Below, in pieces: positions 2,761 to 19,364 of a stretch of 21,476 nt of DNA. The notes below the pieces were generated by a model. The model was not told where the DNA came from and did not search any database. It saw only the letters and a program-made list of their open reading frames with translations. A program made the translations under genes and the position numbers. This DNA comes from a virus. Taxonomy: Duplodnaviria; Heunggongvirae; Uroviricota; Caudoviricetes. Location: IMG/VR virus record IMGVR_UViG_2526164632_000013, one strand, 5' to 3'. Positions within the stretch are counted from its first letter, which is position 1. Every line of letters starts with the position of its first letter.

Positions 2761-2789
2761 CGTCAATACGGTTCTTGCTGCACGCTTAC
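2761..2789. repeat. IS66-family right terminal inverted repeat (imperfect)
   Basis: ...CTGCACGCTTAC ends at 2789; its reverse complement GTAAGCGTGCAG... pairs with 337-365. Confidence 0.5.
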
Positions 2790-3300
2790 GGTAATCCGAA
2801 GAAGAAAATACAGTGATCGACGGCCAGCCAATCTTCAGGAAGGAGCCGTCAAGAAACATTTTATCGTGGACGTTGTTGTCATTACGGGAAGGACTGAGGC
2901 GCTTGCTGACCTCCGGACTGTGGCGAAACGTTCTGGAAAGACGCGTTCTGGAATGCTCACGCGCCTTCGTCTCAGTCATCTGCACCACCAGCATATCCGC
3001 CGGATCACAGATGATGCCGTACACAATCCAGCCATCAATCAGCCCTTCGGTTTTCCCGGTTCGCGCAGGTCCCACAAACACCACCGCGTCATATTCACGG
3101 GCTGATAATGTATTAATGGGGTCAATCATATAGGGCGTCAACGATGACTCCCACGGACCGGAAGTATTGGCTCCCCGTGGTACCCGCATATAACGCCTGA
3201 TGGCTTCCGCTACTGGTAACCGGCTGGGTGGGCGAAACAGCGAGGCCACTTCGCGCCAGATATCGGATGCGCGGCTATGGCTCTCGTTCACCTGATTCAC
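2790..3300 (-). pseudogene. Terminase large subunit (lambda gpA-like), N-terminal about 170 codons only; truncated by the IS66-family element
   Basis: GTG start at 3300 overlaps the small-terminase stop (GTGA). N-terminus MNQVNESHSRASDIWREVASLFRPPSRLP... and the ATPase-like VFVGPARTGKTE block resemble lambda gpA as recalled. The frame then runs into IS sequence at 2789 and stops at 2668. Confidence 0.75.
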
Positions 3301-8515: not shown

Positions 8516-8963
8516 GAATCCTCCCGGCCGGGATAATATTGTGAGTAAAATGAGGAGCGGGCTGAAGTCCGGAAGTTACAGGACAATGGCAGAAGAGAGA
8601 CAACAGCCCGCAATACGAAAAAGGCCGCGCTATTGCGCAGAGTGATTACTGTCGGATATTATTCGCCAGCTGAAATATTACTTCACGTTTTGTTGTTTAT
8701 TCCTTGCCGCCCGCGTCTCCCAGCGCGGGCTTTTTTTGTCCATAAGAAAGCCCCTCCGGAGAGGGGCTGGAGAGTGGCGCTATGTGCCATTGCATGGTGC
8801 CGGGTGCCTCCCGGTGAATTCAGTACCAGCACCTGAATCCGCGATTATCCCATATACCTACTCGCTGATTGCCCCTCCGCACAGGGGGATTCACCATGCC
8901 AGTTTCTTTTAACAAACTCCCCGCAAAACAGACAACTGTCAACCGTCTGAATTGTGAGACATT

Positions 8964-8988
8964 TAAAAAAAAGCCCGCAAAAGCGAGC
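8964..8988 (-). terminator. Rho-independent terminator immediately after the tRNA cluster
   Basis: Minus-strand GCTCGC-tttt-GCGGGC followed by TTTTTTTT. Confidence 0.6.
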
Positions 8989-9003
8989 CAGGGAAAATAA
9001 GTG

Positions 9004-9080
9004 TGGCGCGTTGTACTGGATTCGAACCAGTGACCGATTGCTTAGAAGGCAATTGCTCTGTCCGGCTGAGCTAACAACGC
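9004..9080 (-). tRNA. argO: tRNA-Arg (anticodon UCU)
   Basis: Manual fold: acceptor GCGTTGT/ACAACGC, anticodon stem ATTGC/GCAAT, loop CTTCTAA (anticodon TCT), T-arm GGTTCGAATCC, discriminator G, CCA encoded. Symbol assigned by position, following the ileZ-argN-argO order of Stx-phage late regions. Confidence 0.85.
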
Positions 9081-9093
9081 ATGATGCAGATAA

Positions 9094-9170
9094 TGGACCG
9101 CCATCGGGGACTTGAACCCCGCGCAGCCAGCTTCGAAGGCTGGCGCTCTTTCCTGATGAGCTAATAGCGG
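9094..9170 (-). tRNA. argN: tRNA-Arg (anticodon UCG by manual fold)
   Basis: Acceptor CCGCTAT/ATGGCGG (one G-U pair), anticodon stem CCAGC/GCTGG with loop CTTCGAA (anticodon TCG), T-arm GGGGTTCAAGTCCCC, CCA encoded. Symbol by position only. Confidence 0.75.
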
Positions 9171-9253: not shown

Positions 9254-9293
9254 GGGAGCCGCATAATAACGACGCGTAATTAATTCTTCAATA

Positions 9294-10352
9294 TCATCCG
9301 TTCTGGCTGACTAAATCCTGTACTTCCCGAACCGTCTGCTCAAAACGTTCAGTCTCCAGCTCAACGCCAATTGCACGACGCCCGAGCGCCAGTGCCGCTT
9401 TCACTGTCGAACCCGACCCCATGAAAAAATCTGCAATCAGGTCACCCGGACGACTGCTAGCGCTGATTATCTGCTGCAGCATTTCTGCCGGTTTTTCGCA
9501 CGGATGTTTCCCGGGATAGAACTGCACCGGTTTATGCGTCCACACATCGGTATACGGCACCTGCACCGTCACGCCAAAATACCGCCGCAGATGCTTATAT
9601 TCACTCAGCAGTTCCATATACTGCCGGTTCAGCTCACTGTATGTGCTGACCAGTTGGTAATGGGACTTTTCCAGTTCTCCCCGCTGATGTTTCTCTTCTG
9701 CCACCCGGGCAAACAGCGACTGTAATTTCAGATAATCGCTTTCGTTCGGTAGCTGCCACTGACTGGCACTGAACCAGTGCGACACCATGTTTTTCTTTCC
9801 TGTGGCATCTGCAATCTGTTTTGCCGTTATCCCCAGGGCCGCGCGCGCATCACGAAAGTAAGAAATCAGCGGGGCCATCACATGCTGTTTCAGTGCACTG
9901 CCCTTCGCCGCATACCCGGCATCTTTCGGACGATACGGCCCCTGATAATGTTCCGCGAACAGAATGCGCTCTGTGGCGGGGAAATACGCCCGCAGGCTTT
10001 CCTTGTTGCATCCGTTCCAGCGTCCGGACGGCTTCGCCCAGATAATATGGTTCAGCACACTGAAGCGTTCACGCATCATGATTTCGATATCAGATGCCAG
10101 GCGATGACCACAGAACAGGTAAAGACTTCCGGCAGGTTTCAGCACCCGCCAGAACTGCGCCAGACACTGGTCCAGCCACTTCAGGTAATCATCGTCGCCC
10201 TTCCACTGGTTATCCCAGCCCTCGGGCTTCACTTTAAAGTATGGCGGGTCTGTGACTATCAGATCGACAGAGTTTTCCGGTAAGGTCTGGATAAATTCCA
10301 GGCAATCAGCGTTGATTAACTCACAACTGGATATTTTTACAGCATTAGCCAT
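9294..10352 (-). CDS. Orphan DNA methyltransferase, beta-class amino-MTase (probably N6-adenine)
   Basis: 352 aa; motif IV IVTDPPYF near the N-terminus and motif I FFMGSGST near the C-terminus (CcrM/RsrI-like order); no adjacent restriction endonuclease candidate. Confidence 0.85.
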   Translation of the reverse strand: MANAVKISSCELINADCLEFIQTLPENSVDLIVTDPPYFKVKPEGWDNQWKGDDDYLKWLDQCLAQFWRVLKPAGSLYLFCGHRLASDIEIMMRERFSVLNHIIWAKPSGRWNGCNKESLRAYFPATERILFAEHYQGPYRPKDAGYAAKGSALKQHVMAPLISYFRDARAALGITAKQIADATGKKNMVSHWFSASQWQLPNESDYLKLQSLFARVAEEKHQRGELEKSHYQLVSTYSELNRQYMELLSEYKHLRRYFGVTVQVPYTDVWTHKPVQFYPGKHPCEKPAEMLQQIISASSRPGDLIADFFMGSGSTVKAALALGRRAIGVELETERFEQTVREVQDLVSQNG

Positions 10353-13723: not shown

Positions 13724-13879
13724 TTACTCCTCAGGTTCGTAAGCTGTGAAGACAGCGACCTCCGTCTGGCCGGTTCGGATTCGTACCTCGCAGAGGTCTT
13801 TCCTCGTTACCAGTGCCGTCACTATGACGGTTAAACAGATGACGATCAGGGCGATTAACATCGCCTTTTGCTGCTTCAT
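13724..13879 (-). CDS. hok: Hok/Gef-family type I toxin (HokD/RelF-like)
   Basis: 51 aa MKQQKAMLIALIVICLTVIVTALVTRKDLCEVRIRTGQTEVAVFTAYEPEE, the Hok family signature; AAGGAG Shine-Dalgarno. An in-frame upstream ATG (13936) with its own Shine-Dalgarno gives a 70-codon mok-like frame. Confidence 0.85.
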   Translation of the reverse strand: MKQQKAMLIALIVICLTVIVTALVTRKDLCEVRIRTGQTEVAVFTAYEPEE

Positions 13880-14090
13880 AGCCTGCTTCTCCTTGCCTTT
13901 CGGCGCGTAAGAGGCTAACCTACGTTTGTGAAGCATAGATTGGGCCTCAGATTAATGTTAAGCGTCTTGCAGGACGCGTAATGTTAACTGGGGCTTTTCT
14001 CTGTCTGCCTTACGGTGGCATGCCCGAGGCAGACAGCCTCAAGCACCCGCAGCAATTCTACTTAACTCCCGTCACCTCGCCAATATAAAA

Positions 14091-14250: not shown

Positions 14251-15282
14251 CTACCAATCAATAAAATCAGTGATGTTATCCAACCTAATTACAGTAACTT
14301 CCCGTCTCAACTGGTTTTTCCAATATATCTCACGAGCGTTTTGTTCACCAGCACCGCTCCACTCAATTACTCTTAAAGGCTTAGAGGTTAGGTAAGGTCG
14401 AATAAGCAGGTTAAGGTGAATATCGAGACCAGAGTAACCAAACAATATTATTTCTTCTGATTCAAATAATGCAAACTGCAAATAATCCCAGTACGTAGAA
14501 AGAACATTAGATGCTGCTATAACTGACGGTTTTCTTTTTATATGAGTTAACACTATATGCTCACTAGGTTCATCTATGTCAAGAGTAAGTTGTGAGCGTG
14601 AAAGTTTTAAAACATTTTCATGCTGATTAATAAATAGTGGTGAACCATGCAAGTGCAAATAATAACCAAACCTACGATTGTATTTCCGTTCGAGCGCTGC
14701 AGAGGAAAATCCGTGGCTTAGCATCCCATCAACTAAAACCCCATCATACCCGTTGAATATATCATTATCTATGAATGAATTGTATAATAATTTGTCATAG
14801 TTTAATGTCGCGATATGTGAGTGTGTGTTCTTTACAAACTCCACAAGCGCATTTTCGAATCTTTGTGGCAAACCTTTATCGTAATTATGCAACCTGGTTG
14901 CAACTTTGTGAATATAAGTGGCGGTAATTTTGGGGAAGTTTAGTCCATCTTCAGTAAGCCAATGCACGTTCCCCTCTCCAATTTGAGCAAGAGCTTTACA
15001 ATATGTGACAGCCTGGTGAAGGGTATCCAACTCATGTTCTCCTTCTGGTGGACCTTGCCGCTGAAGACAACGCTCGATAAGTTGCTTGTGGATATCTTTT
15101 AAAAAATTGGGGCGATGCCAAATTTCTTCCAACGCTCTGTCTAAGGAGAAGTGAGCAGGATCTAAAGCCATACCGAGACCGTTGCCGAATATTATTAATT
15201 TTCTTGCCATATAGGGGGACTCATATTGGAATAACGCTGGATAGCGTCGCGCGATACGCTTAAGTTTAGGATTAATAGACAT
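14251..15282 (-). CDS. Standalone SIR2-like (SIR2_2-type) protein, candidate NADase defence effector
   Basis: 343 aa with the ordered motif set of defence-type SIR2 domains as recalled from ThsA: IIFGNGLGMA (Gly-rich NAD loop), IATLNYDKLL (TNYD-type, putative catalytic Asn161), YYLHLHGS (putative catalytic His212), ILFGYSGLD. No other domain. The gene and its 370-bp upstream region are visibly AT-rich compared with flanking phage genes (not computed). Confidence 0.8.
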   Translation of the reverse strand: MSINPKLKRIARRYPALFQYESPYMARKLIIFGNGLGMALDPAHFSLDRALEEIWHRPNFLKDIHKQLIERCLQRQGPPEGEHELDTLHQAVTYCKALAQIGEGNVHWLTEDGLNFPKITATYIHKVATRLHNYDKGLPQRFENALVEFVKNTHSHIATLNYDKLLYNSFIDNDIFNGYDGVLVDGMLSHGFSSAALERKYNRRFGYYLHLHGSPLFINQHENVLKLSRSQLTLDIDEPSEHIVLTHIKRKPSVIAASNVLSTYWDYLQFALFESEEIILFGYSGLDIHLNLLIRPYLTSKPLRVIEWSGAGEQNAREIYWKNQLRREVTVIRLDNITDFIDW

Positions 15283-17857: not shown

Positions 17858-18265
17858 ATGGATACAAGAACCCTAGGCCAGCGAGTTCTGGCACGACGAA
17901 AAGAATTACGCCTAACACAACGAGAAGCTGCACGCCTCGCTGGGGTAGCTCACGTCACAATTTCACAATGGGAAAGAGACGAAACCCAACCGGTCGGGAA
18001 GCGGTTATTTGCTTTAGCTGATGCGCTGAAGTGCTCGCCTACATGGCTAATGTTTGGTGACGAAGACAAGGCACCAGTGCCAGCACAAGAACTTCATGTG
18101 GAAACCGAGTTAACTCCCAGCCACAAAGAATTGATCGAATTATTCGATGCTCTTCCCTCCTCCGAGCAGGAAGCCTTACTGTCTGAAATGCGCGCAAGAG
18201 TAGAGAATTTCAATAAACTCTTCGAAGAAATGCTTAAAGCACGTAAAAACAAATCAATAAAATAA
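17858..18265 (+). CDS. dicA: XRE-family HTH repressor (DicA-like)
   Basis: 135 aa; HTH LRLTQREAARLAGVAHVTISQWERDETQP; C-terminal ...SPTWLMFGDEDK...MRARVENFNKLFEEMLKAR resembles DicA as recalled; 135 aa is the size recalled for DicA. Confidence 0.8.
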   Translation: MDTRTLGQRVLARRKELRLTQREAARLAGVAHVTISQWERDETQPVGKRLFALADALKCSPTWLMFGDEDKAPVPAQELHVETELTPSHKELIELFDALPSSEQEALLSEMRARVENFNKLFEEMLKARKNKSIK

Positions 18266-19306: not shown

Positions 19307-19364
19307 TTTCTGGTGACGTTTGGCGGTATCAGTTTTACTCCGTGACTGCTCTGCCGCCGTTTTT
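19307..19364 (+). ncRNA. dicF: DicF small regulatory RNA (ftsZ-targeting)
   Basis: TTTCTGGTGACGTTTGGCGGTATCAGTTTTACTCCGTGACTGCTCTGCCGCC followed by GTTTTT matches the 53-nt DicF sequence as recalled; lies in a 570-bp non-coding gap between the ydfC-like and dicB-like genes, as in Qin. Confidence 0.8.

Follow-up and report, generated by a model that had tools for sequence, protein, structure and literature searches.

The window, a 21,476-nucleotide stretch of DNA, carries a lambdoid, Qin-like prophage. Between the Q-like DUF1133 gene of this prophage (upstream) and its holin, lysozyme and Rz genes (downstream) sits a cassette of three tRNA genes with the following parts:

9263-9291, minus strand: sigma-70-like promoter TTGAAG-17-TATTAT, found by a consensus scan and aligning with the annotated pT of phage 933W
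9178-9253, minus strand: ileZ, a CAU-anticodon tRNA and first gene of the cassette (ARAGORN, as Met; Rfam, 72.5 bits; tRNA-Ile in RefSeq and 933W)
9094-9170, minus strand: argN, tRNA-Arg(UCG), 77 nt including an encoded CCA (ARAGORN, Rfam, minimum free energy fold, RefSeq and 933W)
9134-9136, minus strand: the UCG anticodon of argN, cga on the plus strand (sequence reading; ARAGORN anticodon at position 35)
9004-9080, minus strand: argO, tRNA-Arg(UCU), reader of AGA and AGG and third gene of the cassette (ARAGORN; Rfam, 70.1 bits; RefSeq; 933W)
8965-8989, minus strand: intrinsic-terminator-like hairpin GGCTCGCTTTTGCGGGCT (8989-8972) followed by a T-run (scan; conserved in 933W)

The genes are ordered Ile2(CAU)-Arg(UCG)-Arg(UCU) on one strand, with spacers of 7 to 13 nt. 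The promoter-like site lies just upstream of ileZ, and the terminator-like hairpin lies 15 nt past argO. ARAGORN called three tRNAs in the window, all on the minus strand and at the coordinates above: Arg(tct), Arg(tcg) and Met(cat). The Met label belongs to ileZ, which RefSeq and 933W call tRNA-Ile (a reader of AUA after lysidine modification). The original prediction had read the flanking anticodons as UCU and CAU; ARAGORN, 933W and RefSeq agree on both, and the CAU tRNA is of the Ile2 type.

In addition to the DUF1133 and lysis genes, the window prophage has cI/Cro-like regulators, dicB, DicF, hokD/sok, rem, RusA, a DNA methyltransferase and terminase, and its annotation contains no stx genes. 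The sok antitoxin RNA occurs with hokD (13874-14048, minus strand) and the DicF sRNA with dicB and ydfC (19308-19359, plus strand); these mark the prophage as a Qin/Kim-like element. From position 337 on, the window is 99.6% identical to its best RefSeq match, and no alignment to the closest complete genome covers its first 336 nt. Set against the RefSeq annotation, the window shows an IS66-family element, ISEc22 (tnpA, tnpB and transposase), at about 418-2752 on the plus strand, with terminase fragments on either side (about 2779-3300, minus strand, and before about 338). Because this element splits the terminase large-subunit gene, the prophage is probably unable to package and defective. 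A stand-alone SIR2-family protein of 319 aa is encoded at 14251-15210 (minus strand), between hokD/sok and the replication genes. Its PADLOC matches are weak (Aga_SIR2, 3e-6; PDC-S21, 1e-5), its gene is very rich in ileZ and argO codons (11 AUA, 6 AGA and 3 AGG), and it may be a prophage-borne defense moron.

Closer to the cassette, the methyltransferase gene (9294-10352, minus strand; PADLOC MTase_II match, 6e-165) ends 40 nt upstream of ileZ, with the tRNA promoter-like site just beyond its 3' end. It separates the Q-like gene from the tRNAs, an interval filled in 933W by pR'/tR' sequence alone, and no restriction partner is apparent nearby in the window. An STnc100-type sRNA and a DUF6645 protein are encoded on the other, downstream side. 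The sRNA is a full-length Rfam match (139 bits) at 8738-8928 on the minus strand, about 45 nt past the terminator hairpin. Members of the STnc100 family lie past the cassette, or past stx, in 933W and in several related loci too, adjoining AsxR in 933W and AgvB in locus L122.

Is the middle gene a sound tRNA? By hand-folding, the original prediction had placed a prophage tRNA-Arg with a UCG anticodon at 9094-9170. ARAGORN returned the same coordinates and anticodon and set the gene on the minus strand. The anticodon loop, given earlier as CTTCGAA, is exactly CUUCGAA on that strand, a 7-nt loop that is the reverse complement of plus-strand positions 9132-9138. This loop call was right although the palindrome around it had been transcribed with one G dropped: it was quoted as GCCAGC-TTCGAA-GCTGGC, and the plus strand reads GCCAGC-TTCGAAG-GCTGGC. 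A terminator-like scan flagged the same palindromic arm, and a tRNA on the plus strand was considered there. We dropped that reading because the T loop and the CCA end exist only on the minus strand, as do the tRNA calls of ARAGORN and Rfam.

On the minus strand, argN reads CCGCUAU-UA-GCUC-AUCAGGAAA-GAGC-G-CCAGC-CUUCGAA-GCUGG-CUGCG-CGGGG-UUCAAGU-CCCCG-AUGGCGG-U-CCA. Its stems of 7, 4, 5 and 5 bp, 7-nt anticodon loop, U33 and purine at position 37 are those of a canonical elongator tRNA. The acceptor stem (CCGCUAU/AUGGCGG) opens with C1-G72, contains a U5.G68 wobble and is followed by the discriminator U73; this wobble is the one G.U pair in the molecule, and the stems hold no mismatches. The D loop AUCAGGAAA (G18 G19 A20) numbers as A14 U15 C16 A17 G18 G19 A20 A20a A21, and the T loop is UUCAAGU. 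Read against the conserved tRNA positions, the sequence keeps U8, A14, G18G19, A21, T54-Psi55-C56 and A58. The minimum free energy structure is a cloverleaf (-32.7 kcal/mol, z = -2.06). Rfam RF00005 matched each of the three genes along the whole model, argN at 55.8 bits (model 1-71; E = 8.7e-10; gathering score, 29), about 15 bits below argO and ileZ and typical of intact argN alleles, which score 54.8 to 58 bits. No ORF of at least 60 aa overlaps argN in the window.

RefSeq NZ_CP066032.1 (E. coli FDAARGOS_1059) contains the very same sequence, which it lists as tRNA-Arg with no pseudogene flag. Neither another anticodon or isotype nor a pseudo-tRNA was thus returned for the gene, ARAGORN giving Arg(tcg) and RefSeq an unflagged tRNA-Arg. 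As marks of argN decay we took stem mismatches, a lost TTC T loop, a deleted or replaced anticodon arm and a score below about 45 bits. The window copy, full length, with its T loop, unmismatched stems and score as above, shows none of them.

The gene has been described before. The record of Stx2 phage 933W (AF125520) names the three genes ileZ, argN and argO, and annotates a putative tRNA promoter, pT, upstream and a possible rho-independent terminator downstream, where the window hairpin sits. Its note on argN reads 'codons recognized: CGH; CGG?'. By megablast, a 281-bp cassette query is about 95% identical to 933W, and the promoter, three tRNAs and terminator together align over 392 columns at 95% mean column identity. 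The two argN genes match at 72 of 77 positions. By its sequence, then, argN is an already described, named and long-annotated gene of the Stx-type lambdoid prophage cassette, an identity that the original prediction missed. A search of the available literature with the names ileZ, argN and argO found nothing relevant, and the prior record consists of the AF125520 annotation and passing mentions of the tRNAs. The tRNA promoter is active in an O157 Stx2a lysogen, where mapping located a transcription start site that drives the tRNAs ahead of stx2 (PMC7547250). Most likely, a constitutive promoter of their own, pT, drives the three tRNAs as a single transcript that ends at the hairpin past argO.

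Megablast with the 281-bp query found the cassette in 289 phage records, mostly of Stx2-converting phages, at 90 to 96% identity, and 77 of 123 scanned sequences share the three-tRNA architecture. An argN-like sequence is present in 2026 of 5426 complete E. coli genomes (about 37%; median, 2 copies; maximum, 8) and absent from the other 3400. Among 185,579 prokaryotic species representatives (one genome per species), the argN body occurs in only five: three Escherichia or Shigella and two MAGs, one labeled Proteobacteria and one Collinsella. We conclude that argN is an accessory, prophage-borne gene of the Escherichia/Shigella clade. In the lambdoid prophages of these two genera the cassette sits between the Q/late-regulatory region and the lysis genes, and Shiga-toxin phages have it too. 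The only known arginine tRNAs of K-12 are argQVYZ (ACG), argX (CCG), argU (UCU) and argW (CCU). The tRNA-seq table for EDL933 (O157:H7) likewise lists only ACG, CCG, CCU and UCU as arginine isoacceptors (PMC13185646). As far as this table and the 3400 genomes free of argN-like sequence can show, the original prediction was right that E. coli itself has no UCG arginine tRNA.

What might argN contribute to decoding? Its sequence carries A20, the major ArgRS determinant, as well as C35 and G36. The combination of U73 with C1-G72 is unusual; position 73 is a purine in each of the four known host tRNA-Arg species. The bacterial arginine determinants compiled by Giege and Eriani (2023; PMC9976931, Table 1) are A20, C35, U/G36 and A/G73 or U73. 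We infer that argN would be cotranscribed, processed and charged with arginine, and that it would read CGA by U34:A Watson-Crick pairing and probably CGG by U:G wobble. Inosine:A wobble is inefficient in E. coli, and argN would bypass this wobble of the host tRNA-Arg(ICG).

The host reaches the A-ending CGN codons through inosine on tRNA-Arg(ACG) (PMC13185646). According to the same study, the host ICG tRNA accounts for 58,299 normalized reads in EDL933, against 4,471 for Arg-UCU-1. In its AQRNA-seq table, prophage-type Arg-UCU and Ile2-CAU tRNAs fill multiple rows and are abundant; Arg-UCG has none, though EDL933 carries an intact argN. The missing row could reflect very low abundance or an artifact of the reference or filter.

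Codon demand was measured on the window's own ORFs (28 intact annotated genes, 4162 codons) and, for the host, on 40 core genes (12,289 codons) from one 50-kb chromosomal region of the closest complete genome. [quoted passage not shown]

CGA: 5.3 per thousand in the window vs 2.7 in the host, 1.9-fold, p = 0.025
CGG: 11.3 per thousand in the window vs 5.5 in the host, 2.4-fold (30-gene set), p = 4e-7
AGA: 8.4 per thousand in the window vs 0.57 in the host, 15-fold, p = 4e-16
AGG: 6.5 per thousand in the window vs 0.49 in the host, 14-fold, p = 6e-13
AUA: 11.3 per thousand in the window vs 2.0 in the host, 5-fold, p = 6e-12

Codon demand makes a strong case for ileZ and argO but a weak one for argN. 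Downstream of the tRNAs, the nine late genes total 1419 codons; they contain 9.2 AGA and 5.6 AGG per thousand, both raised, but their 2.1 CGA per thousand is at the host level of 2.7. The original prediction had proposed that a phage-borne CGA reader would be a specific codon-usage adaptation, to be sought in the late genes against the host. That idea is supported only in part: the overall excess of CGA is 1.9-fold, the late genes are enriched for the argO codons and not for CGA, and argN is the member of the cassette that decays most often (see below). In 933W, the 319 codons of stxA2 include 15 AUA, 6 AGA, 2 AGG and 2 CGA. The cI-like repressor gene of the window (17858-18265, plus strand) looked CGA-rich, at 4 of 135 codons or about 30 per thousand; its uncorrected P of 0.006 is not significant over 28 genes. 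A neighboring gene of 321 aa has 5 CGA codons.

To compare alleles, we fetched 120 viral contigs with a 33-nt argO seed, ran ARAGORN on them and extracted the ileZ-argO segment. A global MAFFT alignment of all loci mixed cassette architectures, making its diversity values meaningless, and regex-bracketed extraction was used instead. It gave 47 distinct middle segments between ileZ and argO. Across the 102 loci with full flanks, ileZ has a pi of 0.0028, with 93 of 102 copies identical. The pi of argO is 0.0098; the seed biases argO conservation, and we therefore also report the non-seed part of the gene (0.0167) and searches of complete genomes with each tRNA. For argN, pi is 0.086 among the 76 loci bearing full-length alleles (31 alleles, 29 of 77 sites variable), and at 26 of the 102 loci the allele has indels or is overwritten. 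Pi reaches 0.18 in the 13-nt spacer that follows argN. In the complete E. coli genomes, the window ileZ allele is identical in 2730 records, and argO is identical in 1330 and 95 to 99% identical in 1246. The corresponding figures for argN are 3 identical records, 449 at 95 to 99%, 1019 at 90 to 95% and 534 at 80 to 90%.

The argN slots of 105 re-extracted cassettes were classed as follows:

Mismatch-free, with UCG and a TTC T loop: 40 of 105, the window allele included
Mismatch-free, other: 2 of 105, one with the anticodon UCU (L022) and one with a mutated T54
One or two stem mismatches: 25 of 105, the common allele having A6.A67 and A52.C62
Multiple defects: 10 of 105, some lacking the TTC T loop and having acceptor-stem C.A mismatches
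Indel: 28 of 105, with the anticodon arm deleted, or overwritten and a G-run of 5 to 14 replacing the 5' side of the T arm

About 60% of the sampled cassettes hence have an argN that is mismatched, T-loop-less, truncated or overwritten, and about 40% have one free of mismatches. Rfam scores fall with class, from the range of intact alleles given above to 42.9 bits with two mismatches and below threshold for the multidefect and indel classes, while ileZ scores 72.5 bits everywhere. Alleles vary at D-loop positions 17 and 20a, at T-loop position 57, in the variable loop and through stem disruptions. A20 is invariant in all 31 alleles. Within the mismatch-free alleles nothing is more constant than the anticodon loop CUUCGAA, from which L022 (CUUCUAA) alone departs. 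No compensatory double substitutions were found among the UCG alleles, only G.U changes or disruptions; within the 31 alleles, compensatory double changes are confined to a single Lys(UUU) variant. Relative to the commonest intact A17/A20a allele (L097), the window copy has one private change, C5 to U, which creates the U5.G68 wobble. Mismatch-free argN was present in 7 of 7 cassettes followed by stx2A versus 25 of 67 without stx, in samples that are not phylogenetically independent. Of the three cassette tRNAs, argN appears to be the least needed and the most often decayed.

Several individual alleles deserve mention. Seven contigs (L101, L010, L005, L039, L115, L117 and L076) share a poly-G allele that is common in the argN slot. 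It keeps the 5' half of the acceptor stem and the D arm, but its anticodon arm is unrelated, a G-run of 5 to 14, depending on the contig, stands in for the T-arm 5' side, and neither ARAGORN nor Rfam sees a tRNA. L022 (2133-2209) has the UCU anticodon on a mismatch-free argN body adjoining stx, the same specificity as argO, and L088 (13661-13737; 46 bits) has a GCG anticodon and an anticodon-stem mismatch on an argN body. At position 37, the argO gene of 933W (L001, 3010-3086) carries a G in place of A (loop CUUCUGA), either a real mutation beside the anticodon or an error in the 1999 record; the seed holds A37, so the other loci have A37 by construction.

These data cohere best if argN is taken as a real CGA/CGG reader whose role is marginal. 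We put at roughly 0.6 the probability that it is a structurally intact middle gene of the cassette whose product is arginylated and reads CGA and CGG, with a contribution that is probably small. The contribution is probably small because prophage demand for CGA and CGG is only about 2-fold above that of the host, because the host ICG tRNA is very abundant, and because argN drifts and decays while ileZ and argO stay fixed. Such a gene would be kept in active Stx phages and left to decay in cryptic prophages.

Perhaps, however, the intact-looking argN makes no measurable contribution at all, the cassette being kept for ileZ and argO while argN drifts neutrally toward a pseudogene? We regard this as a real but distinctly less probable alternative. 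The pi of argN is 9 to 30 times that of its neighbors and approaches that of the adjacent spacer, and the damaged alleles in about 60% of cassettes score 43 bits or below threshold. The window allele has its private C5-to-U change and is found unaltered in only three E. coli records. CGA in the late genes is at host level, EDL933 tRNA-seq has no Arg-UCG row, and the IS66-family element in the terminase gene means that lytic-phase selection is probably gone from this prophage. Yet the window allele has no stem mismatch, its sole private change is a G.U wobble, and the canonical tertiary positions, A20, C35, G36 and the CCA end are all retained. The mismatch-free copies in about 40% of cassettes, and in all seven that are stx linked, point to some purifying selection, at least in active phages, and CGA plus CGG are about 2-fold enriched in the prophage.

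Two further ideas take the diversity of argN as the product of selection. In the first, slot 2 of the cassette is evolvable: its conserved acceptor and D-arm body would gain new anticodon arms (UCG, UCU, GCG and UUU) or be overwritten under selection, for example for nuclease escape or as a decoy. If so, argN would be a counter-defense element and not a codon supplement; we consider this improbable. In the second, which we hold to be still more doubtful, argN resupplies or decoys tRNA-Arg against a nuclease (colicin-D-like or an anticodon nuclease), and its hypervariability records an arms race. Phage tRNAs can rescue translation from tRNA-targeting defenses, allele diversity is unusually high in just one of the three tRNAs, and anticodon-arm variants do occur on one body (UCU in L022, GCG in L088 and UUU in L123). 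However, it is the anticodon loop that varies least among the mismatch-free alleles, the changes in the D, variable and T loops and the stems have the pattern of relaxed constraint and not of nuclease evasion, many alleles are destroyed by deletions or poly-G replacement, and no tRNA-Arg nuclease is evident in the window.

Finally, C1-G72 and U73, which are atypical for E. coli tRNA-Arg, could mean that another synthetase than ArgRS charges argN, or that none charges it well, so that it mistranslates CGA or acts as a nontranslational RNA; C2-G71, G3-C70, U73 and C35 also partly resemble tRNA-Gly determinants. We find this scarcely credible, since the strong E. coli ArgRS determinants A20, C35 and G36 are all present, A20 never varies among the alleles, GlyRS needs C36 and G1-C72, both lacking in argN, and U73 itself is among the bacterial arginine determinants (PMC9976931).

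The gene itself is textbook content of Stx-phage genomes, and confirming it changes nothing. What is modestly new is that, within one 260-bp cassette, ileZ and argO are frozen while argN drifts and is often pseudogenized, in proportion to codon demand. Conservation of each tRNA tracks the overuse of its codons by prophage genes: those of ileZ and argO are 5- to 15-fold enriched and the genes essentially frozen, whereas those of argN are enriched about 2-fold and can already be read by an abundant host tRNA. In the sampled stx-linked (active) phages, argN is intact. This contrast argues against taking every phage tRNA as an adaptation, and annotators have reason to check argN copies for decay.

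Compared with known systems, the window argN is closest to that of 933W, with which it shares gene order, strand logic, the UCG anticodon and the same acceptor, D and anticodon arms. The two cassettes are also alike in the position of the promoter, the terminator after argO and the placement at a late-regulatory site upstream of the lysis genes. The window gene differs from that of 933W at U5 (its private G.U wobble), A17, A20a, A57 and C63, and its T stem is fully Watson-Crick where that of 933W has one G.U pair. The cassette is followed by the STnc100-type sRNA and DUF6645 protein in the window and by stx2AB in 933W, and the window prophage, unlike 933W, is Qin-like with an IS-disrupted terminase.

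The second comparison is with the host tRNA-Arg(ICG) (argQ/V/Y/Z). Like argN, it would decode CGA as arginine, and the two share C32, C35, G36, A37 and A20. It uses an I34:A wobble for CGA where argN would use U34:A, and it is by far the most abundant arginine tRNA in the EDL933 reads (PMC13185646). No sequence homology between the two was detectable, and the complete-genome search returned argN-type bodies only.

A variant cassette, Ile2(CAU)-'Lys(UUU)'-Thr(UGU)-Gly(UCC), occurs in E. coli FORC_082 and ECMA0423 and in S. flexneri SFBU1023. It lies at:

L123, 2424-2733: variant Lys(UUU) cassette
L125, 1247-1556: variant Lys(UUU) cassette
L127, 7651-7960: variant Lys(UUU) cassette

Like the window cassette, the variant sits after Q and before holin, and its ileZ is identical; its downstream partner tRNAs are different. 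The 'tRNA-Lys' (Rfam, 44.4 bits) shares the acceptor and D arms of argN and is identical to it at 63 of 77 positions. It differs in its UUU anticodon arm, three compensatory pair changes, C33 in place of U33 and an A.C in the T stem.

The last comparison is with the codon-compensating model of phage tRNAs (Bailly-Bechet, Vergassola and Rocha 2007, as cited in PMC7946995 and PMC3636060). In the terms of that model as cited there, argN, carried by a phage, would serve a codon poorly decoded by the host, but it fits weakly: CGA is 1.9-fold enriched overall and not at all in the late genes, and the gene is often lost. By contrast, argO and ileZ, with codons 5- to 15-fold enriched, fit the model well.
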